Assembly: GCA_035362715.1 (NCBI GenBank)
Contig: DAOSDU010000006.1
Coordinates: 29,151 to 93,150 of the forward strand
Length of the DNA: 64,000 nt
Direction of reading: 5' to 3'
Origin: Methanofastidiosum sp.
GTDB taxonomy: Archaea; Methanobacteriota_B; Thermococci; Methanofastidiosales; Methanofastidiosaceae
Made by a program: the position numbers and the translations under genes. Position 1 is the stretch's first letter. Every line of letters begins with the position of its first letter. Below are positions 45,426-63,317 of the stretch, piece by piece. Below the pieces are notes generated by a model. It had not been told where the DNA came from, did not search any database, and worked only from the letters and a program-made list of their open reading frames with translations.

Positions 45426-45845
45426 CTAGTCCATCTCATCCCTTATTTCCTTTAATCTTTTTAATATGTCAAGGACTAATCCATTCTCAATTGAGGCGGC
45501 AATAAAGCCCCCGCCCATAGTAAGCCTATCTCCTGCTAAGATCTTTTTGAATAAAGCCCTAATGTCCAGTATATTAGCTTCTGACAAGGGAATCGCTCTA
45601 TTAAGTAATAAAGATATATGATTCCCATCTCTACGCTCTCCTTTACGGCCTACATAACTGGTGGTAAAATTTTCCTTGTAGAGCGTATGCAGAAAATTGA
45701 TAACTTCTGCTGAATCCTCCACCCAGCAATCCACTACAGTAAAGAATATATTGTCTTTGTTTTCAAAATACGGCATGAACTCTAAGACCTTGTCTATGTT
45801 TTCCTTTGTTATTGGGATTGAGTTTTCTATTAGGTGCATTTTCAC
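45426..45845 (-). CDS. Hypothetical protein (139 aa) in operon between nuclease and glycosylase
   Basis: Tight spacing (8-9 bp) to both neighbours. Confidence 0.4.
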   Translation of the reverse strand: MKMHLIENSIPITKENIDKVLEFMPYFENKDNIFFTVVDCWVEDSAEVINFLHTLYKENFTTSYVGRKGERRDGNHISLLLNRAIPLSEANILDIRALFKKILAGDRLTMGGGFIAASIENGLVLDILKRLKEIRDEMD

Positions 45846-45903: not shown

Positions 45904-46938
45904 TCAGTATTTGTCTTTTATTTTGAAATCCACCACATAGTATTTTAATTCTACCAGGTTATTTATCGCATCCACAGCATACTGAAGTCTTTCATCTGGC
46001 TCGTTTACTATTATTATTCCCCTCACTTTAGAGCCATAATTTTTCTTCACCCAGCCTATATACCTTAATATCTGGCCCACCACTTCATCGTTTTTCCGGC
46101 CTTTCTTGAGCTCAATTACGACTTGATTTCCCCTGTTGTCCTTGCAAAGGAGGTCTATCCTCCCAACTTCTTTTGTATCGTACTCTTTCCTTACGTCAGT
46201 GAATCCTTTCTCAATGGCCGAAGGATTCATTGACAGGAAATCCCTTAAATCATTTTCAATTGAAATTGAGCCATAAGCTTTTAATGCTTCTTCTGGGCCA
46301 CCGTCTTCTTCATCATAACCATACCAAAGAATATCAGACAACAGGTAATAATTTTCTAAGTTCAATAGTTCTTTAGCTGATTGAAAAATAATAAAATCTC
46401 TCAAATACTCTATTGTTCTGTCAAAATACTTATTATCCGCGGAAACATTAAACATACTTAAGGCATCTTCTCTCGCTGCCTCATCTTGTTCGGAACTTAT
46501 ATTCATTGCTTCTTTATTTTGTGCCGTAATAATTGGATATTTGAAGTTGTCAGAAGCAGTTAAAAAATGTGATAATGTGTGGACCCCCATGCCTTTCAAT
46601 CTAAGGAAATTATCTATCCTTTCAGGGAATAATTGTTCATCCCCGTGTATTAAATATCTAAGATGTGAATTGAACTCTTTTATATTGTCTCGGTACAATA
46701 GATTTGACAAATTCCTGTTAGAAACTAGAATCCTCATTTTTTTAAATAGATGAAAGAAAGTATCCGAGTCCATATCTTTTTCATTGATGAATTCTATGTC
46801 ATGCAAAATCTTTTTGCATTCATTTTGCGCTTCATCTTGTATAGGTCTCAAATTTTTGACTTTTTCTGTATTAAGACTATTATTTTTATAAGATTGTAGA
46901 ATTTCTATTTGCTCAGGTGTAAATTCAAATTTAGACAT
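45904..46938 (-). CDS. Protein with C-terminal YhcG/DUF1016-like PD-(D/E)XK nuclease domain and unknown N-terminal domain
   Basis: GRIDLLCKDNRGNQVVIELKKGRKNDEVVGQILRYIGW matches DUF1016 core (IDLL..D..VVIELK.G....D..GQL..Y). Confidence 0.5.
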   Translation of the reverse strand: MSKFEFTPEQIEILQSYKNNSLNTEKVKNLRPIQDEAQNECKKILHDIEFINEKDMDSDTFFHLFKKMRILVSNRNLSNLLYRDNIKEFNSHLRYLIHGDEQLFPERIDNFLRLKGMGVHTLSHFLTASDNFKYPIITAQNKEAMNISSEQDEAAREDALSMFNVSADNKYFDRTIEYLRDFIIFQSAKELLNLENYYLLSDILWYGYDEEDGGPEEALKAYGSISIENDLRDFLSMNPSAIEKGFTDVRKEYDTKEVGRIDLLCKDNRGNQVVIELKKGRKNDEVVGQILRYIGWVKKNYGSKVRGIIIVNEPDERLQYAVDAINNLVELKYYVVDFKIKDKY

Positions 46939-47261: not shown

Positions 47262-47792
47262 ATGTCTGATATTTTAGGAAAGCAATGCCCAAGCTGCGGG
47301 ATTAAATTTGTCATGGAACTTGAAAAATGCCCTATATGTAATGTTTATTTAGATCTTATAAGTGATACAAAAGTTTTTGATAGCAGTGGCTTCACTAAAG
47401 ACGGCTTTGACAAGTATGGCTATGATGAAAAAGGCTACGATAAACATGGATTTGATAGAGACGGTTATAACAAAGCAGGATACTCCAAAGCGGGTTTTGA
47501 TAGAAATGGATTCAATAAACAAGGCATCCATAGATACACAGGCAGAAAATTTAACTTTCAAAATATTGATCAAAATGGCTACGATGACAAGGGATTTGAT
47601 AAAGAAGGGTATAACAGAAATGGCTTTGATAGGTTTGGCAGGGATAAAGACGGCTTTGACAAGGACGGGTACGACAAAAAAGGATTTGACAGAAACGGCC
47701 TTCACAGAAACGGGACAAGATATGGATATAACGGCTTTGACAAGGATGGCTATGATAAGGAAGGATACGATAATAAAGGAATTAAAAAATAA
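47262..47792 (+). CDS. Zn-ribbon protein with about 25 tandem 5-residue repeats G-[FY]-[DN]-[KR]-x
   Basis: CPSCG..CPICN then GFDKDGYDKKGFDRNGF... ; other frames of same repeats give low-complexity ORFs. Confidence 0.4.
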   Translation: MSDILGKQCPSCGIKFVMELEKCPICNVYLDLISDTKVFDSSGFTKDGFDKYGYDEKGYDKHGFDRDGYNKAGYSKAGFDRNGFNKQGIHRYTGRKFNFQNIDQNGYDDKGFDKEGYNRNGFDRFGRDKDGFDKDGYDKKGFDRNGLHRNGTRYGYNGFDKDGYDKEGYDNKGIKK

Positions 47793-47809
47793 AATCAAAT
47801 ATATAAAAT

Positions 47810-48424
47810 TTATAATTGAACAATCATTTTATTAGATGATTGCCATAGGTACCAAACAGCAATAGTACTATATGGGCCCCATTTTGAAGTTATACTATAA
47901 ATTTGTTCTTTAGATATATTTTTTATCCCATATGATCTCTCCAAGGCTCTAAGAAATCCTATATCATCCAAGGGTAAAACATCAAGCCTATTCATTGAAA
48001 AAATTAAAAACATCTCGGCTGACCACCTACCCAATCCTTTTATTTTTGTCAAGTATTCAATGATCTCTTGATTCGATAAATTATTAAAAAATTCGTCATC
48101 GACTCTATACGTTAAGAAGTGCATAGACAATCCGAGTATGTACTCAATTTTTCTTTCAGATATTCCAGCTTCTTTGAATCGATCTATTGAAATCTCCAAT
48201 ATGGCCTCTGGGGAGGGATTATTATTAATTACTTCCAAAAACCTTTTGTATATTGTATTTGCAACCCTTATAGATAGTTGCTGATGGATTATTATCCTTA
48301 CCAAAGAACTAAAATAGTTATTATTCTTTGAGAGTAAACATTCCCCTATGTCATCAATTATCTTTGATAAGACTGGATCCCTTGATTTTAAGTGATCAAT
48401 GGATTCTTTATACTCAGTTTTCAT
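47810..48424 (-). CDS. AlkA-like 3-methyladenine DNA glycosylase (HhH-GPD)
   Basis: IKGLGRWSAEMFLIFSMNRLDVLPLDDIGFLRAL matches AlkA HhH-GPD catalytic region. Confidence 0.65.
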   Translation of the reverse strand: MKTEYKESIDHLKSRDPVLSKIIDDIGECLLSKNNNYFSSLVRIIIHQQLSIRVANTIYKRFLEVINNNPSPEAILEISIDRFKEAGISERKIEYILGLSMHFLTYRVDDEFFNNLSNQEIIEYLTKIKGLGRWSAEMFLIFSMNRLDVLPLDDIGFLRALERSYGIKNISKEQIYSITSKWGPYSTIAVWYLWQSSNKMIVQL

Positions 48425-48519
48425 GATTGCCCCTATGAGTAATAAAAAATTAATATGTCTTTCTATTATCAGGATTTTTTGAGTAAACTTCTTAAATAAG
48501 GAATAATTAAATAGTTCGG

Positions 48520-49677
48520 ATGGAAGAATACGAGTATATTTCTCTTAAATTGCTTGAAGCTGCTATTAATCAAGAAATAAATACTTTTCTAGAGGAAGTG
48601 AAAAAATATAATTTTGATGAATTATTGAGATTTGTTTCTAAACAGGAAACGGGAAGAGGCGGATCTAAAGAAGAGGGAGAAAATAAAAACTTCGAGTATA
48701 AGACCCACGAAGTAGTTAGATATTACCAAAAACTTAGACTTGGCAAAGACGTCTCTAAATATTCTAGCGAAGCTGATAGATTAAAATATGAACTTAGATG
48801 GAAAATTGCAAGTGCTCCTTTTTTTTCAAAAGCCACAGAACACCTTGTCTACGATAGCATAACTAAATACTTGCTTAAAAACAATATTGGATATAAACAC
48901 TATTACTCCCCAAATGCATCAGATTTTGCCATAATTATAGAAAAAGAAGATATTCTAAAATTAATAAAACTACTAGATCTTGATATTACTTTGCCAGATT
49001 CAGATTATAATGGCATTGTGATGCATGTCGATGCTAAAAGTGTATCCGCTTTACTTAATCTTAATGATAGGCTTGTAAAGGCCGAAGCTTCAGGTAGGGA
49101 AAAAAGAGAATTAGGTCAATGCACTGCCAACTGGAATCAAATATCCTACATACCTAAAAAGTTGGAAGATGCTTTGAGAAAATATGATGATGAATTCAAA
49201 CATAAAAAACATGAAGTTTTGCCCCAATTTATATCAATCAATAGTTCAAAATATTATACTGTTACTAATTTTGTTAGTTGCCTGTCTTACCTACCCAAAG
49301 GCTCCACTTTTTTTAAAGATGATCTTGATACCCTAGATACCAGTTACTTTTCATTTGTTTTTTGCGTGATTTCAGTGCCAAACGGAATATTAAAAGATCG
49401 ATTCTATGATGAATTCTTTGGAGGGGTCAAAAATGGGTACGATAAGACCCTTGATCAAAAATATCCTTTTGATTCTAGGATATACATTAAAAGTTCAAAA
49501 GAAGAATATTTAGTATTCAAAAATTTAGAGGAAATGCCTAAAAGATTTTTCTATATGCCAGAAACGGAAAATGAATTTCAAGTAATGGTACTCACTAAAG
49601 GAGAAGTTATGACAAAAAAATTTATTTTAAATAAATCAACATCAAATAATTATAAACTAGATAAGTTTATTGGGTGA
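48520..49677 (+). CDS. Hypothetical protein, paralog 1 of three (degenerate PD-(D/E)XK-like core plus shared C-terminal module)
   Basis: About 40% identity to 50492..51550 along most of length; SPNASDFAIIIEKE segment; shared (I/V)(S/N)(I/V)PNG C-module. Confidence 0.5.
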   Translation: MEEYEYISLKLLEAAINQEINTFLEEVKKYNFDELLRFVSKQETGRGGSKEEGENKNFEYKTHEVVRYYQKLRLGKDVSKYSSEADRLKYELRWKIASAPFFSKATEHLVYDSITKYLLKNNIGYKHYYSPNASDFAIIIEKEDILKLIKLLDLDITLPDSDYNGIVMHVDAKSVSALLNLNDRLVKAEASGREKRELGQCTANWNQISYIPKKLEDALRKYDDEFKHKKHEVLPQFISINSSKYYTVTNFVSCLSYLPKGSTFFKDDLDTLDTSYFSFVFCVISVPNGILKDRFYDEFFGGVKNGYDKTLDQKYPFDSRIYIKSSKEEYLVFKNLEEMPKRFFYMPETENEFQVMVLTKGEVMTKKFILNKSTSNNYKLDKFIG

Positions 49678-50446
49678 TTTTATTTTTATATCTGATTTAG
49701 ACTTAGAAAGATTGGAAGAAAAATATTTGAATATTATTTATAATCAATTATATATAAACATAAATCCAGTAATTAAAGGGATTATGTCACGAGACAAAAT
49801 AACAATATATTGGAAAGAGAAATTTGCTAATCAATCAGAACAGAAAATAACTTCAGACATTGCAAAAGGCGCCGAAAGAATTTTTTCACATTATATGGTA
49901 GAAGAATGGGAACCAAATTCTTGCCCTATTGGGTCTGACTTATTCTATAAGACAAATAATGCATATGTGCATATTGAAATTAAAACGGCAAGAGTAAATA
50001 GCAGAACTCAAGATTATAAAGGTTTATGTCCTGTTAGCAAAAACCAGACTAGCTATTGTGCAACTGAATCCTACACAAAAAGAACTATGATTAAAACAAT
50101 TCCAAATTTACCTTATTCTTATTTTGAATATCCTTGTCTAACTTATGCCATACAAACGATATATGATCCAGATAATAATTATTCTACTTTAGCTGTACTT
50201 TTAATTAGTATTCCAAATGGCCAATTATTCAATATTTATGGTAATAATATAGCAAAAGCTGGAAAGTTGAAAAATGAATCTTTTAGATATGTATATTCAA
50301 GGAATCCGTATTTTGAAAAAATAAAAAAATGTACCCCATGTTCACCTCACCGAGTTAAATTCATTTATTTTAACGAAGGATATATTTTAGACAATGAAAG
50401 TCCCATTACAAAAGAATTTATTACTGGTCGCAATGATATACTTTAG
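49670..50446 (+). CDS. Putative PD-(D/E)XK restriction endonuclease-like protein sharing C-terminal module with flanking paralogs
   Basis: CPIGSD(x13)HIEIK: classic PD...ExK; C-terminal ISIPNG module shared with neighbours. Confidence 0.45.
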   Translation: MGDFIFISDLDLERLEEKYLNIIYNQLYININPVIKGIMSRDKITIYWKEKFANQSEQKITSDIAKGAERIFSHYMVEEWEPNSCPIGSDLFYKTNNAYVHIEIKTARVNSRTQDYKGLCPVSKNQTSYCATESYTKRTMIKTIPNLPYSYFEYPCLTYAIQTIYDPDNNYSTLAVLLISIPNGQLFNIYGNNIAKAGKLKNESFRYVYSRNPYFEKIKKCTPCSPHRVKFIYFNEGYILDNESPITKEFITGRNDIL

Positions 50447-50491
50447 TTTTATACCGATAACTCTATATTCTTTTGTCAGTTCGATAAATCG

Positions 50492-51550
50492 GTGTACCAA
50501 ATGGAACAGTACGAATATATCTCATTTAAACTAGTTGAGAAAGTTTTAGGGAATAAATATAATGAGTTCACAAAAAATATCAAAAATATTCATTTTGATG
50601 AAATGTTTCAGTTTCTTTCAAGGCAGGGAAGTGGCAGGGCACGGACCTTATATGATTATGATTTGAGAGATGTTCTTGAATCTTGCATCAATTCTTCATT
50701 GGATCGAGAAAAAGAAAAGGAATTAAGATGGAGACTCGCCTCCTCACCATTATATAAAGTAGCTATCGAAAGATTTGTCAATGAAAATATGACTAAATGG
50801 TTTGTTGAGAATGAAATTGAATATAGTATATACTATTCTCCAAATTCCTCAGATTATGCGGTCGTACTAACTAATAATTCTTATACTAAAATAGCTGAGA
50901 TCTTAGATCTAGACTTTGAGATTAATGAGAACTATGACGGCGGATTATTACTTGTCGATTCTAAGAGTTTGAATGCCTTAGGAAATCTTGGAGATTCTTT
51001 AGTAGAGGACGAAGTAGGGCTATTTGAAGCAAAATGGAATCAAATATCATATGAACCCCCATTGCTAAAAAAAGCAAAAACTGAGCATCCAGATCCTCTA
51101 ATGGCTAAAAAACATAGTGTGTTACCTCAGATTACATTAATAGAAAATAAGAAGTATGTAACTGTTACCTGTTTTGCAGTAGGATTAAATTATTTGGCAT
51201 ATCCTTCCCCTTTTTTCACTGATCCCTTGAATACTCTCAGCAGCAAATACTTTGATATAATCTTATATATAGTAAATGTTCCAAATGGAGTTCAAGGCAA
51301 TAAATTCGACAGATTCTTTTTTAATGGTAAAGGGGGATATGATGAATCAAATCCAAATTACCCTGTTGACTGCAGAATTGGTATCAAGAATAATGGTATA
51401 TATCTAAGGTTTGAGGATATAGAAGGTAACCCTAAAAGATTTTCTCATTTTCCATCAACGCCACGATTTTATAATATTTCATTATTCAAAAATAGAGGGA
51501 TAATAGGAAAAAGAGTAAAAGTTGGAGAGGTCATAAGACCTCTTTGTTAA
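50492..51550 (+). CDS. Hypothetical protein, paralog 2
   Basis: Homologous to 48520..49677 (MEQYEYISFKL..., ELRWRLASSP..., EAKWNQISYEP...). Confidence 0.5.
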   Translation: MYQMEQYEYISFKLVEKVLGNKYNEFTKNIKNIHFDEMFQFLSRQGSGRARTLYDYDLRDVLESCINSSLDREKEKELRWRLASSPLYKVAIERFVNENMTKWFVENEIEYSIYYSPNSSDYAVVLTNNSYTKIAEILDLDFEINENYDGGLLLVDSKSLNALGNLGDSLVEDEVGLFEAKWNQISYEPPLLKKAKTEHPDPLMAKKHSVLPQITLIENKKYVTVTCFAVGLNYLAYPSPFFTDPLNTLSSKYFDIILYIVNVPNGVQGNKFDRFFFNGKGGYDESNPNYPVDCRIGIKNNGIYLRFEDIEGNPKRFSHFPSTPRFYNISLFKNRGIIGKRVKVGEVIRPLC

Positions 51551-51620
51551 TACAATAACACTTAGGACAACCTTTAAATCTTATATATTTTTAATACTGA
51601 TACCCAATAATCAAAAGGTA

Positions 51621-53702
51621 ATGCTTATGCCAGAGGATACAATCTTACATGGAGATGTTTATGCATGTCTAACTTCTCTTGAGGATAATTCAATTGCAGT
51701 TGCTATAACTTCACCACCCTATTGGGCCCAAAGAGATTATGAATTTGAGGGCCAAATTGGTTCAGAAAAGACTTCAGAGGAATATATTGGGAAGCTAGTT
51801 TCAGTTTTTAGCAAACTAAGAGAGAAACTAAGAGATGACGGTATATTTTTCTTAAATGTTGGCGACAAATATTTTAACAAGTATGGAAAGTCGAACTTAC
51901 TTTTAATACCTTATAGACTTGCTTATCACATGCAAAAAGATGGTTGGATAGTTGAAGATATTATTATGTGGTATAAACCAAATCATATGCCCTCATCTGT
52001 GAAGGACAGATTTGCAAATACTTATGAGCCTGTAATAGTTCTATCCAAGAATAAACATAATATCTATAAAAAAGAAAATAATGTTCTTAGTATTCCATTA
52101 CAGCCTTCCAAATGGAAACACACCGCAGTATTCCCAGAGAAACTAGTTGATGAATTATTAAAAAAAATTAATCTAAAAAAGGAGGATATTGTACTAGATC
52201 CTTTCGGAGGTACTGGAACTACTGCTTATGCTGTTAAAAAGTTGAGAAACAACAATCTTAATCCTTTAGAAATATATTCTATAATGATCGAAATGAGTGA
52301 AGAATTTGTCAAGATTATCCAAGAGCGGGTTGATATACAAAAAATTGTTCCAGTAAACCATATAGAATATAAATGGAAATCCCTCACAAATGACTATCCT
52401 TCTTATACTGAAATTAATGAGATAATCAACAATATTTATGGAGAAGTATTCATTGCAAATACTTCAAAAGAATTAATTGCTGCATTTAATGGCATTACAG
52501 GTGACAATTTCAAGAAATACCACCGAAAGGACGCCCTATACTTTTTTGGTGTTAAGAATTGGGATCTAGAAGCCCTGTATTATGCCAACAGGATATATGG
52601 GTATAACTATGTTTTAAGAAATATGATTATTATTTCCAATAACTTCAAATGGTATCCTATTTTTGTATTTGCTAATGATAGCACCATAGTTCCGTATAAA
52701 TTTTATATTGATAGGATAAGAGTTGATCCTTTAATGAAAAATGAATTTGACTGGGATAAAATTAAATTTATTGGAATGAAGGTCAAAAGTAGTTTTTCTA
52801 AAGAAACTAAAGAGGGAACTATTGTTGAAATACTAAAAAATTATGAAGACGGGTTCCCTAAAATAGTATGTGTTCAATGGAATGGAAAAGCTTCTATAGA
52901 ATTTGTGATACACCCAGGGGAAGACGAATTTTTAATGGAAGGTTTGAAATTCTTATGTCCTTTTTGCCATACTACTCTAAAAGAAATATTTAATCCTATT
53001 TCAAAGACAAAATGCCCAAATTGTAAAAAGGAACTATTGAATGGCAAGGACTCTATACCAACGATTATAGAGCCAGAACAAATTGAGATAGAATTAGAAA
53101 ATCTAAAATCTATATATAGCCCCATTGGAAAAATTATTGAAATAAATTCATTTGAGAATAAGAAAAAAACGTCAAGTAAATTTGCAGATGTAAAAAGGGT
53201 TAACTGGGGCGCTTCTCCAGGTGCTAGAAAAATCATGGAAGGCGACTATTTTGCTAAAATGAGATTATATAGGATGGATCAACCAACAATTGCGAAAATA
53301 CTATCGATAATACGAGAGAGTAAAGACTTTAAAATTAAGGATTTATTGGAAGTTTTTCCTGATAATTATCTCCACACAGTAGGCCATTGGTTTAGAACTG
53401 ATTTTGGAGGTTCAGTTCCGAAAAATGAAGATGCAGAGAAACTAGAAGAGGTAATAGGTAATGGAGAAAAAATATGGGAAATTTTAAAACGTACAGCATT
53501 GAAATTTCAAACTGTTAAATCATCAATAAAAGGAAAAAATCCAGGCGATTTTATTTTTGATTTATCAGATGAAGAACTAATTAATTATTTGAGACTATTG
53601 TTTATGACACCAAATGATTATATAAACTCTCTAACAAATAAAGATAATATAAATATTAAAAATCATCAATCTGACTTAGATTCTTTCATGAAAAATGAAT
53701 AG
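51621..53702 (+). CDS. DNA amino-methyltransferase (beta class, N4-cytosine or N6-adenine) with about 450-aa C-terminal extension containing Zn ribbon
   Basis: Motif IV TSPPYW near N-terminus followed by motif I VLDPFGGTGTT (beta-class order); C-terminal CPFC...CPNC. Confidence 0.8.
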   Translation: MLMPEDTILHGDVYACLTSLEDNSIAVAITSPPYWAQRDYEFEGQIGSEKTSEEYIGKLVSVFSKLREKLRDDGIFFLNVGDKYFNKYGKSNLLLIPYRLAYHMQKDGWIVEDIIMWYKPNHMPSSVKDRFANTYEPVIVLSKNKHNIYKKENNVLSIPLQPSKWKHTAVFPEKLVDELLKKINLKKEDIVLDPFGGTGTTAYAVKKLRNNNLNPLEIYSIMIEMSEEFVKIIQERVDIQKIVPVNHIEYKWKSLTNDYPSYTEINEIINNIYGEVFIANTSKELIAAFNGITGDNFKKYHRKDALYFFGVKNWDLEALYYANRIYGYNYVLRNMIIISNNFKWYPIFVFANDSTIVPYKFYIDRIRVDPLMKNEFDWDKIKFIGMKVKSSFSKETKEGTIVEILKNYEDGFPKIVCVQWNGKASIEFVIHPGEDEFLMEGLKFLCPFCHTTLKEIFNPISKTKCPNCKKELLNGKDSIPTIIEPEQIEIELENLKSIYSPIGKIIEINSFENKKKTSSKFADVKRVNWGASPGARKIMEGDYFAKMRLYRMDQPTIAKILSIIRESKDFKIKDLLEVFPDNYLHTVGHWFRTDFGGSVPKNEDAEKLEEVIGNGEKIWEILKRTALKFQTVKSSIKGKNPGDFIFDLSDEELINYLRLLFMTPNDYINSLTNKDNINIKNHQSDLDSFMKNE

Positions 53703-53736
53703 TAATCTTTTTTAAGAGTAACAATTTTTTTTATTT

Positions 53737-53934
53737 ATGTCGCAACGTTTTTGCTACGAGTACATAAAAAACAACGCTTCAAATGAAAAACCTCTAACTG
53801 CAAAGAATATATCAAAAAATTGTCCAGGACTTGGAGAAAGAGCCATTGTAAAATCCTTGAAATTATTAAGAGAAAATAAGGAAGTAAAATATATCTATAA
53901 AAATGGAACTTATTTTTATACTGGCATATATTAG
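53737..53934 (+). CDS. Small hypothetical protein (possible wHTH controller)
   Basis: 65-aa ORF at 3' end of MTase operon; LGERAIVKSLKLLRE helix-like. Confidence 0.25.
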   Translation: MSQRFCYEYIKNNASNEKPLTAKNISKNCPGLGERAIVKSLKLLRENKEVKYIYKNGTYFYTGIY

Positions 53935-53982
53935 TTAATTTTGATAATAATTTTTATAAAGGTAAAATAATAATTAGCTATT

Positions 53983-54025
53983 GTCCAGGGCGCCATTACT
54001 TTCTTTTGGCAGAACAGCCCTGGAC
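53983..54025. other. GC-rich 9-bp hairpin (GTCCAGGGC...GCCCTGGAC, 25-nt loop) in AT-rich intergenic region
   Basis: Inverted repeat read directly; second IR GCCTAGG...CCTAGGC at 54070-54106. Confidence 0.5.
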
Positions 54026-54285
54026 TATTCAACAATTAAATTTATAAATCGAAATTAAGCGGGTAGATTGCCTAGGTGGTCAAATAGTCTGTAATTCAGC
54101 CTAGGCGAAATACTATTTCTAATTATCTAACAAGCTAAATTTAAGGTAGATTCTTCTCTTATTATAATTAATATATCATATTTATGCTATTTTTAGTTAG
54201 TTTTAAATAGTATTTATTTTTAATAGCTCTGATTAAGATTTGGTAATTTGGGGGGTTTATTATAAAAGAACCCGAAGATCTTGCT

Positions 54286-54486
54286 TTGGCTGCAGTTGGG
54301 AGATTGATTAGGGGAGAGGGGATAGAGAGAGTTTCTGAAGATGCATGCATAGCTTTGGCCTTGGCACTTGAAGAATATGCAAGGCAGATAACAAGAAAGG
54401 CAAAAGACTATTCGACTCATGCTAAAAGAAAAACAATAAAACTTGATGATATTGAGCTTGCACTGAAAGATTTTAAGATTAAATAG
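54286..54486 (+). CDS. Archaeal histone (HMf-like histone fold), TTG start
   Basis: AAVGRLIRGEGIERVSEDACIALALALEEYARQITRKAKDYSTHAKRKTIKLDDIELALKDFKIK matches archaeal histone consensus. Confidence 0.8.
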   Translation: MAAVGRLIRGEGIERVSEDACIALALALEEYARQITRKAKDYSTHAKRKTIKLDDIELALKDFKIK

Positions 54487-54653: not shown

Positions 54654-55322
54654 TCATGCTTTCATAATCCATGCCACTTCATAATATTTTGGCCTAATAT
54701 CAATTGTAAATCCTGCAACTCTTGTGGTGGTGTCCCCTGCAAAAGTCCAAGACCCTGCTACAGTCTTTGTATGGCTACCGCCAGTTGTCCCAGGATTTGT
54801 TGAAGAAGTCGTTATGCCCTGAAGGAAGCGGTCAATTAGATTAGGCGTCCCGTTGTTTCCATCGCAAAGAAGCCATCCTGATGGGATGCTTGTTAATACC
54901 CCACTCCAAGCCACAATAACTCCAGGCGGTACAAACGAGGGTAATCCCGAAATAACGTTTGTAATTGAAGAGATTGAACTAGCCCCCGCAACAACTGTCG
55001 CAAGTAGCATCGCATCATCCGGCAAAGTTACGGAAGTTGAGATTGTGAGCCAGTTAGCGCCGTTGTCAGAATGCAGATAAACATAGTTTGTGCTATTTGC
55101 TGTTGCTGTCAAAGATTCTGCAGCATCTGAAACAACTTGAAACATGCCCCCGGCCGCATCCTTTACATATGCAGTTCCAGCAGAAACGCTAAGATTAAGG
55201 CCACTGTCAACTGAAACTGTAAATCCTGTCTTTTTGCCTTCAGGAAAGAAATCCCCGAAATACTGCCTGAAATCAGCCGAGGTGATTTTTGCCCCTGCCG
55301 ATACCTTTTTTGTAAATGTCAT
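54654..55322 (-). CDS. Phage tail fiber protein with tail-collar domain
   Basis: GVIVAWSGVLTSIPSGWLLCDGNNGTPNLIDRFLQG...GGSHT matches Phage_tail_collar domain. Confidence 0.75.
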   Translation of the reverse strand: MTFTKKVSAGAKITSADFRQYFGDFFPEGKKTGFTVSVDSGLNLSVSAGTAYVKDAAGGMFQVVSDAAESLTATANSTNYVYLHSDNGANWLTISTSVTLPDDAMLLATVVAGASSISSITNVISGLPSFVPPGVIVAWSGVLTSIPSGWLLCDGNNGTPNLIDRFLQGITTSSTNPGTTGGSHTKTVAGSWTFAGDTTTRVAGFTIDIRPKYYEVAWIMKA

Positions 55323-55332
55323 GAATATACCT

Positions 55333-55836
55333 TTAAAATTCTATAACGTAATAAACAGTCATTGTTTTTGTGTTGCTGAAAGTTTTTGTTGGAGAGATCA
55401 ATGAGTGAGTAAGAAGGTCTGTCTGATTGGCAGCATAAAGTCCAAGCTCCGCCCATGTGCCATAATAATCAGCTTCCGTGTAATCAAAATAATAAGTTGC
55501 CTCAGATTTATTTGAATAGGTATTGTTATGCAAGCTCCCGGGGACATAAGATTTTAATGATCCTAACTGTGTTGTTAGGGCCAGATCTGTTGCTGCAACT
55601 GCCGAGCTTCCAGTACCCACCGCTAACTTTCCTAGAACATGTTTATTTGCATCATAATCTCCTGTCAGCACATCTGCAAGTGCAGCTTTTAGTTTGTTTG
55701 TGATCAGATTCTTCTGCCATGACCCTCCAATGACCTTGTCTCTTTCAAGATCATATTCTACAATCTTGAATTTTCCAAGGTAAGGATTTTTATCCCCCCT
55801 CACTAGTTCTATTATGTCCAATCGCTCACGTCCCAT
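55333..55836 (-). CDS. Putative virion structural protein, paralog of 60787..61176
   Basis: LAVGTGSSAVAATDLALTTQLG vs ALGSGTTAEANDQTALVTEI shared pattern. Confidence 0.4.
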   Translation of the reverse strand: MGRERLDIIELVRGDKNPYLGKFKIVEYDLERDKVIGGSWQKNLITNKLKAALADVLTGDYDANKHVLGKLAVGTGSSAVAATDLALTTQLGSLKSYVPGSLHNNTYSNKSEATYYFDYTEADYYGTWAELGLYAANQTDLLTHSLISPTKTFSNTKTMTVYYVIEF

Positions 55837-58800
55837 CTCGCTTCATTGTCATCATATTCGGTCTCATAATCTGTTGCCGTCTCAAAAATATTTTCTGATA
55901 ATACGACTGCAGGTGTTTCAGTTGTCTCTTTATAATCTGTTGTCTGCTCCTGTGATTCCAGGATATTTTTGACTTTCAGCCTTCTAAGCTCGGAAAACAA
56001 GTTTGCAAATGCGGAGTAAAAGTCATCTGCAGCTGTGCATGTCAAGGTGACTGTTGAAATCTGCCGCTCTTTTATCTCGTAAGTTACCGACAGTATTGTT
56101 TGATCTTCAAGCGTTGGCATTCCAGGAAGGGAAGTAAACTCAATAACCTGGCCCGCCTTCAATCTTTTCCCGGGGGGATTTATCACGAGTCGGGATGCAT
56201 TTTTTAGCGCATATTCTATTGCCTTTTGCTGCGCCAAAGTCAATGCAGTGTCTGCCTCCTGGATGGTCAGATCTATAATTGGGATATCTGTATGGTATTC
56301 AAACATCATTGTTTCTGTTGTGGCGCTTTTTACAATCTGCACCCCATAGTAAGTCTTGAAGGCCAGCTTCCCAGTTGCTGCGGTCCATGATCCAGCAAGA
56401 GTTTTGTATTTATGGCCGCTTGTCGTTGTGTTATTATGCACAACTTTGTAAGTGTCTGTTGCCGTGCCAATAATATTGAAAACGATCCAGTTTGTTTTTG
56501 ATATGTCAAGCTGACAATCAACAAGCGTTGTTTTTACCCAGCCGCCGTCAGTGGAAATATCTTCTTGAGGGATTGATCCAAAGCCGATAATGCTTCCAGT
56601 TGGATTTCCGCCGTTATCTTCTACGATTGTGAAGATCATATCATCAAGAGGATTTCCTACCTTTTTGACATAAACGTCCAGGAACAGTATATTTGATTTT
56701 GAGGGCGTAAATGTCGAGGCATAGGATTTATCGTGCAGAGAAACTTCTGTTGTAGTTGTGGACTGGCTGAAATCCAAAAATCCCTGTTTGCCGCCGACAA
56801 CATACACCCTGTCAAAGTATTTCATTGCATCTCGCTTGATCTTAGCGCTTATGATTTCCCCACTTGATATAACGTGGTCTGCTGATAGATCCGCCGCATC
56901 GTAGAAGTTCAAATCGTCATTTTCATCAATGTAAAAGTCAGCACCCACAAGGCTAGCAACTTTATCAATTGCCTGGCCAACATACTCCCATGCAAAGGTC
57001 ATGGATGGAATTGCTTCCGCAAAAGTTTCAAGATTAGTTGTTGTTATTTCAGGGCAATACCTAGAAATAATATCTGAAACTATTTCATCGGCAGTTTTGT
57101 TGTTATAAGTTTCGGCGCCTGATATAGTTGTTTGGCCGGCCCTAATTGACCCATAGTCTTCGCCAGAAAGTATTATGCGATTGCTCCTGTACTCGTCCAG
57201 CTCAAACTCAACTGAGGTGATAAGGCCATGGAAGATCTTTGTGACCGGCGGATCATTTTCATCGACATAGAAGAATACTTCATTCCCCACCTCAAATGTT
57301 TCGGATAACGCCCCGTTATCATTGTATAAACTGATTTCAAAGTAATCCGATCTTTTTCCTTTCTCGTCAGTGAATCTTGCATATTCAATTATGTTTAAGG
57401 CTGAAAGATCTATTTCAACATCGCCAGCCTGTCCCACAATTATGGCCCAAAAAAGTGGTGTCGCTCCGGATGTTTCAGATTTTATTGATAAGGCGCCATA
57501 AGAAGAATAATTTATTGATTCAACCTCAGTGAACTGAAATGCTCCTTTGGATTCAAAAGTGAGTATCTCAATATCTGTATCAACATCCTGGATAATTATG
57601 GAACTATGAGAATCTACTTCTATTAATGAGTGATAGACGCATGCAGTTGCAACTTCCATGGTACTGGCGCCAGCTGCTTCGTTTTCCCCCACAAATGAAG
57701 TATTCAATTGAATATCCATTTGCGCATCACTTGTTATTGCTTCACTGATGATATATGAGGTGATGCCGTTGAATGTAAGATCCCCTATCCCGATAATGTT
57801 TAGTGTTTTTTTGAAATCTGTTTTTATCTCTGCTGTGATTGATCCCATGCCGGCAATCTCTATCAGGTCAGTGTCTGAATCGATGTCCTGGAGCAAAAGA
57901 GATCCATTTGCAGCATATGTAGCGCTTATTATGTAATCTGTGTTTGCGGCTAACTCTAGGGAACCGGCACCGAGCATTATAATATCGGGAGGGGTCCATA
58001 AAGTATAAACAATTATTTTAGCTTTTGAGATATAATCTATTAGCTCAAGATCCTGGATCTGGATTAATCCATGGCCAGAGAAAAGGATTAGTTCGATATC
58101 ATAATCAATGTCCTGAATTGTAACTGAGGAAGCTGCACTCAATAAAGCGCTATAAGTATAATCTGTTGTCGTGATTATCTCTACTGCAGCTTGAGAAGAA
58201 ACTTCAAGAAGATCATACTTATTCATATGCCCTGTTAAGGTGACAAAGGACAATCCTGTCGTGATTATATTAGAAAAATAATTCCCGATTGCAGATAGTT
58301 CAACTGAAGATGCCGCATTCAAAAAGGCGCTATAAGTATAATCTGTTGTCCGGCTTATTTCAACTGACCCGGCACCGATAAAAGTGATAAGTTCAATATC
58401 AGTGTCTATATCATTTGTGACTATTGAAGCGGTGCTTGTGTAATTGATACCATAAATATAATCCGTGACTGTTGTAATTTCAATTGCTGCATTGCTTTGG
58501 TATTCTACCACTGCCGTGGACCCCGAATAATCCCATACTCCAAATGCACCGGCACTGGTAAATGTGATCAGTTCAATATCAGTCTCTACGTCATAAGCGA
58601 CTATTGAAGCAATGCTTGTGTAGTTTACGAGAGATGAGTAATTTGTGGCTGCTGCGATTTGTATTTCACTTTGGGCCCCAAATGATATTATCTCAAGATC
58701 AATGTCAATATCTTGTATTGTAACTGATCCAGCGCCGCCAAATGCGACTTCAACTACTTTCCCTAAGATTGCGCCTATTTCAAAAGTTGCTGCGCCGGTG

Positions 58801-60713
58801 ATGTTTGAAATACTGACCAACTGTTTATGCCCTAAAGCTTCAGTTGTTCCGGCCCCATCAAAAGTTACAGATAAGGCCAAGCTGGAAATTGCAGAAACGG
58901 CAGATGATCCATAACCTGAAAATGTGATAAGTTCAATATCAGTGTCTTTGTCCTGGGAAACGACAGCGCCCAAGCTGGTATAGTTAATATTACAAATATA
59001 ATCAGTAACAGTTGCAACTTCAACTGCCGCATAGCTTTGGTAAGTGATTGTTTGGCTGTATGCTGCTGTTGCCGCAATTGTTACTGCACCTGTCCCTGTA
59101 AGTTCAGCTAATGAATTATACCCCACTTGTTCTTCACAAGAAACACTGCCTTTGCTGGCGATAAGTATTGTTTCAATATCGGTATCAATATCTTGTATAA
59201 CTATTGATCCATATCCTGTGAGAGCTATAGTCTCAGAATATATCAAGCCATAAGTGCAAGAAACTGCACCGTTTGAAGTATAAGTTATTGTTGCTGCTCG
59301 AGCTACTCCGGCTGCGGTCACCGCAACTGCAGCATTTCCAGTATAAGTAACTGTTTCTTCATATTCCTCTCCAGAAGCCTCGGTATATTCTATCACAAGC
59401 TTTGGGTCATAGCTTGTCCCAGAATACTCAGACGAATAGATATATCCGGTATAAGCAGTAGTCAGGCTGGGCGGACTATCTGCATAATCATAGGTGTATT
59501 CCATCAAGCAGTATTTTGTTGTGCCTGTTGTTGAAACGTCTGATTTGCCAGTTGCGTCAAGGTCGATTGTTTTGTAGCCGTTGGTGCTTGTAGCTATAGT
59601 GCCATAAGAGCTCCCGCTATACGCTGTGAAATCGCTTGTTGTAAGTGAAGCTGCCTGTGTCCCTTTCAATGCGCAAAGCGTGGCACCATTGCTAGTTGAA
59701 TAGACATAAACAGAAAGAGCGGCTGTATCGATTGTTGCGCCGTCTGGGATATCTGAAGTATCAAAGTATAGAAATCCCCTTCTTATCGTGTATGCATAGC
59801 CTAGAAGCTGCTTATCAAAGGATTTGCTCGTGCTGACAACTATGGCTGTGGCGGTGTCATAAACTGTGGCACCACTTGTGCGTGCCGTGCTCCAAGACGT
59901 GCTGTATGTTCCTTTTATATCCCCGTCTGCAGAAGTGGAATAATAAGTTGTAGAATCGATATATATTGTTTTTTTGCCTTTCAGTTTTTCATTGCCGGGA
60001 CCGAGAAGGCCGTATTTTTGGACCATCCACGCCCAATTTTTGGCCTTATCATCAAAGTACTTGACATAGAAAATTCTGCCTTCTTTTTTTACGATCTTGT
60101 GCTTCAAAGGTTGCGAGAAGTAATCAAGATTTTCTACCCACATCCTGGGCCTGGGTATCCAGATTTTTTCTTTTGTATCCAGTTCAAAAGTAAATGTTTC
60201 TGCCTTTTTCCCCTTCGGATGGAGTCCCTTCAGATGCAGCTCATACCAGACTTCAACATCTTTCAAATGGATCTTTTCGGTATCCACCACAATAGATTCC
60301 TGGACATAGCGCTCATGGACCCTGTTGTGGATCCAGATGCCATCAGAAATGACGTGCTTCAGTTCGTAATCATTTACCCGCACAATTTTGGTAAATCTAT
60401 CAAAAGTAACTTCTTCCCCATTCAGTATGATCTTAGCGATACTTGCTTCGTATTGCTGATCATACCCTTTTCGGAAGCCAAAATATTTTTCTTTCTTTCT
60501 GTCTTTTCTAAATCCAACAGAAAATTTGTGCTTGTCCATTATGAATTTGTCTTTTTCTTCACGGATCGTTATATCAATAGTTCTTAGATTGTGATTGTCA
60601 TCTTCATAATGGATGGGCTTTTCGTGATAGATCTTTCTGAACTTTCCTGGCGCAATTTGAAATGTTTTTGAAGTAAGAGTCCTTTTTTCAATTACCTCTT
60701 GCTTTTTATTCAC
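55812..60713 (-). CDS. Giant (1633 aa) tail/baseplate protein with central tandem repeats of about 55 aa and C-terminal distal-tail/tail-lysin-like region
   Basis: At least 8 repeats with core IQDIDTDIELITF..G.GS; located immediately after tape measure and small protein as Dit/Tal are in siphoviruses. Confidence 0.55.
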   Translation of the reverse strand: MNKKQEVIEKRTLTSKTFQIAPGKFRKIYHEKPIHYEDDNHNLRTIDITIREEKDKFIMDKHKFSVGFRKDRKKEKYFGFRKGYDQQYEASIAKIILNGEEVTFDRFTKIVRVNDYELKHVISDGIWIHNRVHERYVQESIVVDTEKIHLKDVEVWYELHLKGLHPKGKKAETFTFELDTKEKIWIPRPRMWVENLDYFSQPLKHKIVKKEGRIFYVKYFDDKAKNWAWMVQKYGLLGPGNEKLKGKKTIYIDSTTYYSTSADGDIKGTYSTSWSTARTSGATVYDTATAIVVSTSKSFDKQLLGYAYTIRRGFLYFDTSDIPDGATIDTAALSVYVYSTSNGATLCALKGTQAASLTTSDFTAYSGSSYGTIATSTNGYKTIDLDATGKSDVSTTGTTKYCLMEYTYDYADSPPSLTTAYTGYIYSSEYSGTSYDPKLVIEYTEASGEEYEETVTYTGNAAVAVTAAGVARAATITYTSNGAVSCTYGLIYSETIALTGYGSIVIQDIDTDIETILIASKGSVSCEEQVGYNSLAELTGTGAVTIAATAAYSQTITYQSYAAVEVATVTDYICNINYTSLGAVVSQDKDTDIELITFSGYGSSAVSAISSLALSVTFDGAGTTEALGHKQLVSISNITGAATFEIGAILGKVVEVAFGGAGSVTIQDIDIDLEIISFGAQSEIQIAAATNYSSLVNYTSIASIVAYDVETDIELITFTSAGAFGVWDYSGSTAVVEYQSNAAIEITTVTDYIYGINYTSTASIVTNDIDTDIELITFIGAGSVEISRTTDYTYSAFLNAASSVELSAIGNYFSNIITTGLSFVTLTGHMNKYDLLEVSSQAAVEIITTTDYTYSALLSAASSVTIQDIDYDIELILFSGHGLIQIQDLELIDYISKAKIIVYTLWTPPDIIMLGAGSLELAANTDYIISATYAANGSLLLQDIDSDTDLIEIAGMGSITAEIKTDFKKTLNIIGIGDLTFNGITSYIISEAITSDAQMDIQLNTSFVGENEAAGASTMEVATACVYHSLIEVDSHSSIIIQDVDTDIEILTFESKGAFQFTEVESINYSSYGALSIKSETSGATPLFWAIIVGQAGDVEIDLSALNIIEYARFTDEKGKRSDYFEISLYNDNGALSETFEVGNEVFFYVDENDPPVTKIFHGLITSVEFELDEYRSNRIILSGEDYGSIRAGQTTISGAETYNNKTADEIVSDIISRYCPEITTTNLETFAEAIPSMTFAWEYVGQAIDKVASLVGADFYIDENDDLNFYDAADLSADHVISSGEIISAKIKRDAMKYFDRVYVVGGKQGFLDFSQSTTTTEVSLHDKSYASTFTPSKSNILFLDVYVKKVGNPLDDMIFTIVEDNGGNPTGSIIGFGSIPQEDISTDGGWVKTTLVDCQLDISKTNWIVFNIIGTATDTYKVVHNNTTTSGHKYKTLAGSWTAATGKLAFKTYYGVQIVKSATTETMMFEYHTDIPIIDLTIQEADTALTLAQQKAIEYALKNASRLVINPPGKRLKAGQVIEFTSLPGMPTLEDQTILSVTYEIKERQISTVTLTCTAADDFYSAFANLFSELRRLKVKNILESQEQTTDYKETTETPAVVLSENIFETATDYETEYDDNEARWDVSDWT

Positions 60714-60786
60714 ACCTGAAAAACTGTAGTCGTATCCGGCCAGTCTATCACTTTACCCAATTTTAAAAAAATAAAAAAAAATAGAT

Positions 60787-61176
60787 TTATGCCCTGGATT
60801 CAGTCTCTTTGATAATGATCTGCAGAGAGTCGCCGCCTTCAACAGCCTTTGTCGCTGAGAACTTGTGCCTCATCAGCATGTCCCCTGCAGGATCCCCGTC
60901 ATCGTTGAAAATTCCAACTTCGTTGACGGATAAGCTTCCTGTAAAGGAAAAGGTCTTTGTCCACTTTGCCTTGTAGTCAGCCTCATATTCGCAAGTGGCA
61001 GCCGCCCTTGCTCCGCCGTTAGTTGTAATTTCTGTGACTAATGCTGTTTGGTCGTTTGCCTCTGCTGTTGTTCCAGAGCCTAGTGCGATATATGTGAATG
61101 GGGCAGTAGATACACCATTCAAGAGTTTGGCCTTCATTTCAAGGCCTTTGTTCACGAGTGTTGCCATAAGATTCAA
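60787..61176 (-). CDS. Putative virion structural protein (129 aa)
   Basis: Paralogous to 55333..55836; between TMP and giant protein. Confidence 0.4.
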   Translation of the reverse strand: MNLMATLVNKGLEMKAKLLNGVSTAPFTYIALGSGTTAEANDQTALVTEITTNGGARAAATCEYEADYKAKWTKTFSFTGSLSVNEVGIFNDDGDPAGDMLMRHKFSATKAVEGGDSLQIIIKETESRA

Positions 61177-61287
61177 CTCTCCGTTTTTTCTATTTTCGGG
61201 TAGTCATTTCCCATCTCTTTTATGTTGCCGTCTTTATCTCTGACTACCCATGTCACGAGATATTCCGTCTTGCTTTTTGCTTCCATT

Positions 61288-63150
61288 CTAGAATCCCACC
61301 CTGGTGATTCTATTGATTCGCTTCAGGATTTCATCGGCGATCTTGTCTGGGTCGCCACTTCCTGAAATATTGAAGGTATTGTTCACGACCATGCTTTTTC
61401 CCTGGAGCTTTGATCCATCCTTGAACGCCAGAATATTGTCATCCTTGTGGAACTGCACAACTTCGCCTTTTTTTGTAATCAAAGCATCGTTTACTCTTTT
61501 TGAGATTTCTCCAGTTGCTGTGTTCATGTAACCGACGAGAGCACCACCGGAGCTATTGCGGATTGTCTCGTAAGTTACGCCGCCGCTTGAAAAAGAATTT
61601 GTAACGACTGCATTCCCCCTTTCGGGGCCTTCATAGACTATATCGCTTCCAGCTTGAACTCTTTCAGAAGATCCAAAAGTCCTGCAGCCGCTGCCGCCCC
61701 CTCCGGAAGGATTCAACATCTGCCTGACAATGTTCATTGCGCTGTTCATGTAGTTGACTGCACCGCCAGCAGTTTGGCCCAACTGATCAACTTCCCCTGC
61801 AGTTTTGCTTGTGCTGCCCCTCAAAATAGCCAGATATTCATTTGCAAGCTGCACCGCATTTGTGTTGTTTGTGATTTCAAGACTGTTTTGCTTTGTCTTT
61901 TCCTTGTTTTCATTTTCAGCACGCTCTATCTCTCGCAAGCGTCCCAATGCATCTGCGGCATTTTCTGATTCTATTGGAAGTGTGTTTGGACTTACAGCCC
62001 CAGGGCTAACCCACTGCCCCCTAGCAGCCGCCTCATAAGAGGTATAAGCTCCGGCCTTTTCATACTGCACTTGTTGTCCCGCATAATCCCAAATGGCCAT
62101 GCCCCCGGGATTTGTTGCCCTAAGTCCAAGATCTATAATCTTGTCAAGGTGTAAATCCTTGATAATGACACTTATCCTGGAAAGCGCATCTTCAATTATG
62201 CCCAAAATATATGATACCCTGTCAAAAGCATCGGCCAGTTTTGTGATCGCCTCTTCAGAAGAAGTAACGCCAGCGAGCTTCATGATAATGTTGCCAAGTT
62301 CAGAACCAAAGCTTATCGAATGTTCTAAAAGATTCCCAAACGCATCTACAAGCGGTTGGATTTCCCCGGAGTTTATCATCTCTGAAATCTTGTTTGCAAT
62401 GTTTTCTAATGTTGGCGCTATTGCCCCGGTCAGCTCATCTCCAAAAAGCGTCTTTAGATTTTGGACCTGATTTTGAAAATTGGCAAATATCCCTGCAGTT
62501 GAGTTCCTGAGCGCCTCTGCACTTCCGCCAAAAGATTTTTCCATCTGCTTTGCCAGGTAGTCCATCTTTTGTGCTGCCGACATTGATTTCATGCTGACTG
62601 AATCAAGGACGACACCGTTCTGTTCGAGCGTTGATGTGCTCCCACTAAGAGCCATTGCAACTTGCTTTGTTGCAGTCTCTAGATCCATACCCTCTGCTGC
62701 TGCATAGTCTTCCGCTGCTAACAAGAGCTTTAGCGACCGGTCATAATCCTTTGTTACGGCTATCAGATTGTTGAAGCTTTTCCGAATTGAGATGTCGTCG
62801 ATGGATGTCAGTTCAGAATGCTGGCCTATCACCTTTTCAATCTGCTTTGAGTAGGACTGTATTCCTGCATTTTTCAAAAGATTTCCTGTCTGTGACTGAA
62901 ACTTTGATTGCTCTAAAGAGAGCTTTACCATCTCACGATTCAAGTTTTGTACTGCGGCAATGCCGTAGGTCGTTATGGCAGTTGCCATCGTTCCCACAGC
63001 TACCTCTGCCGCATGGCCCAAAGAATACATTGCCCCGCCGGCTTTGGATGTGCCCTTCTCAAGGCCGCCAAGCGCCGACTCAACATTTTTTATAGGGCCT
63101 GATGCCCTGTCTTCAGCAGTTACAGTTATCTTGACATTTTGCTCTTGCAT
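61288..63150 (-). CDS. Tail tape measure protein
   Basis: 620 aa, helical/low-complexity, Gly-rich tracts, ETATKQVAMALSG-type segment; follows two small overlapping chaperone-like ORFs. Confidence 0.6.
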   Translation of the reverse strand: MQEQNVKITVTAEDRASGPIKNVESALGGLEKGTSKAGGAMYSLGHAAEVAVGTMATAITTYGIAAVQNLNREMVKLSLEQSKFQSQTGNLLKNAGIQSYSKQIEKVIGQHSELTSIDDISIRKSFNNLIAVTKDYDRSLKLLLAAEDYAAAEGMDLETATKQVAMALSGSTSTLEQNGVVLDSVSMKSMSAAQKMDYLAKQMEKSFGGSAEALRNSTAGIFANFQNQVQNLKTLFGDELTGAIAPTLENIANKISEMINSGEIQPLVDAFGNLLEHSISFGSELGNIIMKLAGVTSSEEAITKLADAFDRVSYILGIIEDALSRISVIIKDLHLDKIIDLGLRATNPGGMAIWDYAGQQVQYEKAGAYTSYEAAARGQWVSPGAVSPNTLPIESENAADALGRLREIERAENENKEKTKQNSLEITNNTNAVQLANEYLAILRGSTSKTAGEVDQLGQTAGGAVNYMNSAMNIVRQMLNPSGGGGSGCRTFGSSERVQAGSDIVYEGPERGNAVVTNSFSSGGVTYETIRNSSGGALVGYMNTATGEISKRVNDALITKKGEVVQFHKDDNILAFKDGSKLQGKSMVVNNTFNISGSGDPDKIADEILKRINRITRVGF

Positions 63151-63310
63151 GCTCTTTTCTCTTTTTGATAAGCTCTTCGGCCTGAATTCTCTTTTCTTCC
63201 TGGGTGTCTTCCGGATTCTGGTACAAAATATAGCCCCTCACAAGCCTCCTTTTTTCAAGGATTGTGAGTCTTGGTATTTCCCAAACCTTATATCCAAGCT
63301 GGTGCAGCAC
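63113..63310 (-). CDS. Tail assembly chaperone, downstream (T-like) ORF, probably expressed as frameshift extension of 63318..63638
   Basis: Its frame is open upstream to 63364, overlapping last 15 codons of upstream ORF; overlaps TMP start. Confidence 0.4.
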   Translation of the reverse strand: MLHQLGYKVWEIPRLTILEKRRLVRGYILYQNPEDTQEEKRIQAEELIKKRKEHARAKCQDNCNC

Positions 63311-63317
63311 CTGCTCC

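Follow-up and report, generated by a model that had tools for sequence, protein, structure and literature searches.

Three predicted nucleases beside a single methylase: a Type II restriction-modification system of MwoI/BglI/SfiI type in Methanofastidiosum

Why would several nucleases be kept under one methylation pattern, as appears to be the case in at least three unrelated loci? The question is raised by a five-gene operon of a Methanofastidiosum sp. (assembly GCA_035362715.1), which lies in a stretch of 64,000 nucleotides (nt) of contig DAOSDU010000006.1, positions 29,151 to 93,150, here called the window. An earlier reading made from the letters of the DNA (the sequence-only reading) had described the operon as a layout outside the standard restriction-modification (R-M) types and possibly a new defence system. 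This is not borne out, since all of the parts fall in a known Type IIP family, that of MwoI, BglI and SfiI. The locus is an R-M module of Type II from this family, ordinary in kind and not a new defence system, and it leaves the knowledge of defence systems unchanged in kind. Separate and adjacent endonuclease and methylase genes, by which Type II systems are recognised, are present as three nuclease genes and one PF01555 gene. It is the architecture that is unusual, with three related predicted nucleases, all apparently active, accompanying a single methylase.

The five open reading frames (ORFs) are co-oriented, lie within 5.4 kb and occupy exactly the coordinates, 48520-53934, at which the sequence-only reading had placed them. 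The features of the operon, with lengths in amino acids (aa), are as follows.

48520..49677, + strand: p1, predicted restriction endonuclease, 385 aa, of a rare BglI/SfiI/MwoI-fold subfamily, with E107, D135, D171 and K173
49670..50446, + strand: p2, predicted restriction endonuclease, 258 aa, TTG start, of the short MwoI_N type, with E69, D90, E103 and K105
50501..51550, + strand: p3, paralog of p1 by BLASTP, 349 aa, with E90, D118, D153 and K155
51621..53702, + strand: predicted amino-methyltransferase of M.MwoI type, 693 aa, PF01555 and PADLOC PDLC03303
51621..52340, + strand: catalytic domain of the methylase, aa 1-240, with SPPY at 51711-51722 and DPFGGTGTT at 52197-52223
52956..53024, + strand: zinc ribbon CPFC-x15-CPNC, methylase aa 446-468, read from the sequence
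53157..53570, + strand: module like a target recognition domain (TRD) at the methylase C-terminus, aa 513-650, with VNWGASPGAR, HTVGHWFR and KGKNPGD, found by BLASTP to short methylases
53737..53934, + strand: basic protein, 65 aa, with weak winged-helix similarity

The genes are tightly packed, as had been noted before: the p1 stop is overlapped by 8 nt by the p2 start, and the intergenic spacing is, in order, -8 nt (p1/p2), +45/54, +70 and +34 nt. For p3, the mechanical ORF begins at GTG 50492 (352 aa), while the alignment with p1 and the gene callers prefer ATG 50501 (349 aa). Three other metagenome assemblies, in which p3 is called at 349 aa, carry all five genes at 100% identity (four copies in all). 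The G+C content (GC) of the operon is 0.30, compared with 0.33 in the DNA just before it and 0.42 in the DNA after it.

Three predicted nucleases and their fold

The middle protein, p2, belongs to a family with a known model. In precomputed annotation, Pfam PF27366 (MwoI_N) is assigned to p2 and to all 80 homologs found, and p2 also matches the PADLOC Type II restriction endonuclease model PDLC03522 (6.2e-11) and a hidden Markov model (HMM) of canonical MwoI-type proteins (8.8e-13). Alignment of 37 sequences of the p2 family showed that E69, D90, (D/E)103-x-K105, NQTSY, IPNG, AGK199 and R206 are conserved. The published model of R.MwoI places the active site at E71, D97, D110 and K112, and DNA recognition at K305, S310 and R312 (PMC3458533). 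In p2, K199, S204 and R206 form K-x4-S-x-R with spacing identical to that of MwoI, and canonical MwoI-type proteins show the same triad spacing at K319, S324 and R326. The PD...ExK core that had been read in p2 is present as D90...E103-x-K105, with 10 residues between CPIGSD and HIEIK instead of the 13 originally given. Elsewhere, p2-family genes are found in plain two-gene systems with an N6_N4 methylase of 426-434 aa. As a separate observation, positions 58-141 of the p2-family profile match the 82-kDa large subunit of the vaccinia early transcription factor (VETF; PDB 6rfl_K, residues 262-341; E 2.8e-4), which may reflect a nuclease-like domain in VETF or chance.

The flanking proteins p1 and p3 had been called paralogs with about 40% identity, and BLASTP agrees, with 38% over 368 aa (E 4e-78). 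Their core region, which had been considered degenerate, proves not to be so: SPNxSD does align with PIGSD of p2, and the (D/E)xK lies about 35 residues further downstream, beyond an inserted helix, as the half-motifs VD171-A-K173 in p1 and VD153-S-K155 in p3, which are conserved across the p1/p3 family. The structure model of p1 has a strand at 136-141, a helix at 142-151 and a second strand at 165-176, and D135, D171 and K173 are invariant in an eight-sequence alignment of the p1/p3 family. Moreover, alignment of the p1/p3 family profile with that of the p2 family by hhalign (98.5% probability, E 2.6e-15, p1 residues 2-347) pairs A-x-ERFV with GAERIF, SPNxSD with PIGSD, VDxKS with IEIKT, WNQISY with NQTSY, VPNG with IPNG, GKxGY with AGK, and D-x-R with (D/S)-F-R. 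The (I/V)(S/N)(I/V)PNG module that had been noticed in all three proteins is indeed common to them; it is family-wide and occurs also as AIPNG in canonical MwoI-type enzymes. In the region of the recognition triad, p1 reads K304...D318-S-R320 and p3 reads K277...D290-C-R292; the loop is longer in both, and Asp replaces Ser.

Fold comparison and profile-profile alignment agree in giving p1, p2 and p3 a BglI-like fold, as expected from the shared nuclease fold proposed earlier. All three are predicted nucleases of the PD-(D/E)XK type with a BglI fold, and the metal-binding and catalytic tetrad is complete in every one of them. Because the full tetrad is kept in both paralogs, neither p1 nor p3 looks like the inactive partner subunit that the sequence-only reading had suggested.

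No significant match to p1 or p3 was found in Pfam (including MwoI_N), NCBIfam, PADLOC or PHROGs, and both are currently left as hypothetical proteins by annotation pipelines. An exhaustive HMMER search among 1.84 billion representatives returned only 16 clusters of the p1/p3 subfamily, and a word-indexed protein search with p1 returned 0 matches, p1 itself included, even though three assemblies in the searched collection have this gene among their called genes. Scans of genome contigs and viral contigs gave no p1/p3 relatives, while the metagenome scan gave only two short contigs. As well, tblastn found no match to p1 or p2 in phage records and none to p1 in plasmids. The p1/p3 proteins are a rare, previously unannotated sister subfamily to the short MwoI_N-type family. 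They add to the BglI/SfiI/MwoI fold a restriction-enzyme subfamily for which Pfam, NCBIfam and PADLOC hold no model, and which could yield new cutters of interrupted palindromes, possibly with altered specificity at the position governing MwoI versus BglI selectivity.

The methylase and its C-terminal module

Residues 27-235 of the methylase match PF01555 (3.8e-39), and the PADLOC methyltransferase model MTase_II PDLC03303 matches protein residues 6-669 (model positions 4-667/668) at 6e-225. A word-indexed search returned 2,815 homologs, and the 120 that were listed come from archaea and bacteria and have 53-59% identity over 93-98% of the length. The SPPY, the DPFGGTGTT and the zinc ribbon are present as the sequence-only reading had them, whereas the long extension, which it had called unrecognised, is covered end to end by PDLC03303 and conserved in these homologs. 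The protein has a single motif set, in the order SPPY (motif IV, aa 31-34) and then DPFGGTGTT (motif I, aa 193-201), with no recognition domain between the two. The best PDB relatives of the methylase include M.PvuII, an enzyme that makes N4-methylcytosine (m4C); the SPPY motif and this similarity are consistent with m4C as the product, which is probably what the window methylase makes.

Residues 513-644 of the methylase are homologous to the insert of the short methylases of 426-450 aa (BLASTP to those of loci L004, L005 and L022: 33-35% identity, E 3e-18 to 3e-21), in which the homologous module follows motifs IV-VIII and precedes motif I. This is the position of the recognition domain in beta-class enzymes, so the module appears to be of recognition type. 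Because of the same homology, the long form looks like a permuted relative of the short one, with the recognition module moved to the C-terminus. From its place in the short forms, the C-terminal module would be the recognition domain of the methylase, and the idea that the extension acts as a sensor is not upheld. M.MwoI is an m4C enzyme for which the delta class has been proposed, while M.SfiI is of the beta class (PMC3874165). The predicted layout of the window methylase, with motifs IV-VIII, then I-III and then a C-terminal recognition module, fits the delta class proposed for M.MwoI.

The degree of conservation differs along the protein. The catalytic domain has 66-70% identity to most partner methylases of the family, the TRD-like module 44-62% among long methylases, and the segment that separates these two (aa 241-512, with the zinc ribbon) 28-50% across the compared methylases. 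For the zinc ribbon, only weak Pfam zinc-ribbon matches were obtained, and JGI names some of the homologs after zinc-ribbon proteins. The window methylase is nearest to the methylases found with canonical MwoI-type enzymes; with those of loci L008, L009 and L013 it shares 58% identity overall and 57-62% within the TRD-like module. A long methylase stands immediately after a single MwoI_N nuclease of 373-378 aa in Thermococcus sp. 2319x1, in a Dictyoglomus metagenome-assembled genome (MAG) and on a JGI contig; because of these single-nuclease loci, the long methylase can be regarded as the normal partner of MwoI-type enzymes. In tblastn searches, the methylase extension had no match in phage records, and among plasmids it matched only pPO1.

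Two side observations concern these genes. Between L008 (5457-9201, Thermococcus sp. 2319x1) and L013 (5542-9197, a Dictyoglomus thermophilum MAG), the MwoI-type nucleases are 93% identical and the small flanking genes 85%; this near-identity of the module in an archaeon and a bacterium indicates either recent cross-domain transfer or a mis-binned contig. In the window, the gap between p3 and the methylase (51551-51620) contains CCTTTAAATCTTATATATTTTTAAT, which is A+T-rich and resembles an archaeal TATA box. Judging from this element, the methylase may have its own promoter and, with it, expression independent of the nucleases.

How one methylase may serve several nucleases

Seven other contexts of the p1/p3 family were read. 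The methylase family adjoins the p1/p3 member in 7/7 of them, with the long form in 6/7 and the short form in 1/7.

L014: long methylase directly upstream of the nuclease; the contig stops just past the nuclease
L017 and L018: long methylase, HTH_3 controller-type protein and single nuclease
L021: single nuclease, convergent with the long methylase
L022: divergent member of the family, short methylase of 450 aa and winged-helix gene
L019: p1/p3-type nuclease and canonical MwoI_N nuclease of 381 aa, on either side of a single long methylase
L020: pair of paralogs of 352 and 350 aa, with 47-48% identity, followed by one long methylase

Among the loci that are wholly visible, the family provides the sole nuclease in three (L017, L021 and L022), a pair in one (L020) and a companion to a canonical nuclease in one (L019). 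Because of the first three, the p1/p3 family can be said to serve as the sole nuclease of a locus. Different loci combine the nuclease subfamilies and the methylase forms interchangeably, and two or three nucleases under one methylase are found in three unrelated loci, namely the window, L019 and L020. Two further candidates were rejected in these loci: the 57-aa ORF between the L020 paralogs is not significant as a p2-type remnant (8% probability with hhalign; E 0.035 with an HMM against a database of six sequences), and the proteins of 282-284 aa next to the long methylase in L009, L011 and L019, considered as a shared component, are mutually unrelated.

For the window, the reading that we consider probable is a Type IIP module in which one m4C methylase protects against three separate homodimeric nucleases. 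The methylase would mark the host DNA with m4C in an interrupted palindrome of the GCN7GC kind. Each of p1, p2 and p3 would form its own Mg2+-dependent homodimer and cut within the spacer of the same site, or of narrower GCCN5GGC-like sub-sites, wherever it is unmethylated, to leave 3' overhangs. GCCN5GGC is a subset of GCN7GC, and a single methylation pattern would in this way shield the host from all three nucleases. Stacking the nucleases might give higher restriction efficiency, or make it harder for viruses to escape through a nuclease-specific inhibitor or the loss of a subset of sites. In MwoI, acidic substitutions of S310 narrowed the specificity (PMC3458533); by this analogy, the Asp that p1 and p3 have at the selectivity position, where p2 has the MwoI-type Ser, may confer a narrower specificity. 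The 65-aa winged-helix-like protein, with matches below cut-off to the PADLOC AbiEi N-terminal region (4.9e-4) and Pfam TFIIE_beta (0.0077), may regulate the operon. The gene was also considered as a conserved controller protein, and this was rejected: the small genes at ten other loci include none that is related to it, and it is not a constant component of the family.

Several points weigh against three homodimers under one mark. The recognition sequence is taken from the family by analogy alone. The K...D-x-R of p1 and p3, compared with the K-x4-S-x-R of MwoI, means that their sites may differ from GCN7GC, and coverage of those sites by the one methylase is presumed. Two adjacent paralogs have long been kept in two lineages (the window and L020), which would fit a heteromer too. 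The phylogeny, with bootstrap values of 49% for p1 with p3 and 38% for p1 with P0203, neither supports nor rejects a local p1/p3 duplication. The site counts are neutral and lend no support: GCN7GC, GCNNNNNNNGC, occurs at 138 sites in the window against 86 +/- 9 expected from dinucleotide-preserving shuffles, and GCCN5GGC is at expectation, so that site avoidance is uninformative as a clue to specificity. The over-representation of GCN7GC may reflect codon periodicity, and only one site lies within 47298-54282.

A BbvCI-like heterodimer, which the sequence-only reading had put forward, could be formed by p1 and p3, and it is disfavoured here. In such an arrangement, p1 and p3 would be an obligate heterodimer or heterotetramer of the Type IIT or BslI kind with one half-site each, p2 would be a separate homodimer, and the methylase would modify both half-sites. 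It is suggested by the diverged paralogs (38%) side by side in the window and the separate pair (47-48%) before the same kind of methylase in L020, with catalytic residues intact in both members of each pair, as in BbvCI-type heterodimers; BglI-fold dimers also read one half-site per subunit (PMC3458533). Type IIT systems, however, generally come with two methylases or a fused double one (PMC4081073), whereas the window has one with a single catalytic domain, most similar to the methylases that accompany lone palindrome-cutting MwoI-type enzymes. Moreover, relatives of p1 and p3 stand as the sole nuclease in L017, L021 and L022, so the family needs no second subunit, and the identity of p1 and p3 to these single-copy relatives (40% and 38%) is about the same as that between the two. 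On this evidence, we regard an obligate heteromer as unlikely.

The three genes might instead record gene turnover, with one or two of them being redundant remains of systems that were replaced or merged, such as a p2-type system minus its own 430-aa methylase, and having lost their functional importance. The usual 426-434-aa partner of the p2 family is absent from the locus, the operon GC of 0.30 below that of the flanks (0.33-0.42) suggests acquired DNA, and nuclease subfamilies and methylase forms mix freely between loci. These observations meet three intact ORFs with all catalytic and family-invariant residues present, and an 8-nt overlap of p1 and p2 of the kind expected for co-translated genes. 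All four assemblies have the operon in identical form, with no sign of decay, an identity that gives no power to test selection. As an unprotected active nuclease would be lethal, retention implies coverage by the methylase, and turnover seems to us improbable. We give hardly any credence to a new defence system other than R-M, in which the long methylase extension would sense infection and the nuclease-fold proteins would be the effectors. It could appeal to p1, p3 and the small gene, which have no above-threshold match in Pfam, NCBIfam or PADLOC, and to the middle 270 residues of the methylase, zinc ribbon included, which have no assigned function. Yet the entire methylase corresponds to a known Type II methyltransferase model whose usual partner is one MwoI-type nuclease in two-gene systems, the extension holds the recognition-type module of shorter relatives, and the BglI restriction-enzyme fold is common to all three nucleases.

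Beyond the module with three homodimers that we prefer, a bolder and rather doubtful proposal is that the stacking of diverged BglI-fold nucleases under one methylase, in the window, L019 and L020, is a selected architecture, with either a p1/p3 heteromer on an asymmetric or extended site, or nested specificities inside a broad motif. If so, nested specificities would provide robustness to viral anti-restriction proteins and to site loss, while a p1/p3 heteromer would be a Type IIT-like enzyme served by a single methylase.

Neighbouring genes and likeness to known systems

On the right, a provirus-like tail module (54654-64000, - strand) directly adjoins the operon, with a GC of 0.42 against 0.30. 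Its products are a tail-collar fibre protein of 222 aa (phrog_1800, 1.2e-12), a protein of 167 aa (phrog_5417/4176), one of 1633 aa without a family match and one of 620 aa with weak tape-measure similarity. The operon was considered as possible cargo of this element, and the genes to its left have no viral family matches. Between operon and tail module lies a gene for a 66-aa archaeal histone-fold protein (54286-54486, + strand; Pfam Histone/CBFD_NFYB_HMF), which is uncalled in 2/3 of the other assemblies of the locus. Upstream, a 344-aa protein (45904-46938, - strand) ends in a NucS_C / PD-(D/E)XK nuclease domain (6.2e-20) and is similar to PDC-S02, a candidate defence system in PADLOC (4.7e-19). 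On its two sides lie genes for a DUF6508 protein and an HhH-GPD DNA glycosylase (45426-45845 and 47810-48424), and the three genes may form a small defence and repair island. In addition, a 176-aa protein (47262-47792, + strand) carries a zinc ribbon, CPSC...CPIC, in its N-terminal part and then about 15 short GFD(K/R)xGY(D/N)K repeats in tandem; it has no match in Pfam, PHROGs or PADLOC. Farther away, Rfam reports a tRNA of 145 nt (6942-7086, + strand, 44 bits) that is absent from the ARAGORN output and lies beside tRNA-Cys (6863-6936); it is probably an intron-bearing archaeal tRNA. Like the histone-fold gene, it marks the host as archaeal.

Among the characterised enzymes of this fold, BglI (GCCN5GGC, PDB 1dmu) and SfiI (GGCCN5GGCC, PDB 2ezv) match the window nucleases in fold, with an identity of only 14-17%. 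Searches of the PDB by sequence missed both enzymes, whether the query was a single protein or a profile, and fold comparison alone recovered them. In p1 and p3, unlike in these two enzymes, an additional helix separates the D strand from the DxK strand, the N-terminus is longer and the C-terminus has a beta extension. M.SfiI belongs to the beta class, like the short methylases of the group and unlike the window methylase (PMC3874165).

The Type IIT enzymes (BbvCI and Bpu10I) and the alpha2-beta2 enzyme BslI likewise have two related nuclease subunits side by side, both with catalytic sites, and BslI also cuts an interrupted palindrome (CCN7GG). Type IIT systems differ in generally having two methylases (PMC4081073), where the window has one. 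BslI differs in needing Zn(Cys)4 motifs, while p1-p3 have only 3-6 cysteines each. On plasmid pPO1 of Picrophilus oshimae, the 260-aa ORF5 is a p2-family member (32% identity, E 8e-28), and the 431-aa methylase (ORF2) has its catalytic half and TRD-like module in common with the window methylase. This is a putative two-gene system with a short methylase and without p1/p3-type genes, and an R-M system was already suspected by the authors who described the plasmid (PMC3177234).

The comparison with the MwoI system of Methanobacterium wolfei (GCN7GC) was made through Pfam and PADLOC models and the published residue numbers of R.MwoI and M.MwoI. The window differs from it in having three nuclease genes instead of one, two of them of a subfamily undetected by Pfam MwoI_N, and p2, with 258 aa, is without the insertion of about 80 residues in R.MwoI (aa 190-270, PMC3458533). 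The likeness extends to both halves of the system: p2 has the MwoI_N domain, the E/D/(D/E)xK and the K-x4-S-x-R spacing of MwoI, while the methylase matches the family of about 670 aa that adjoins canonical MwoI-type nucleases of 373-381 aa, with the delta-type order proposed for M.MwoI. In both cases, the host is an archaeon.

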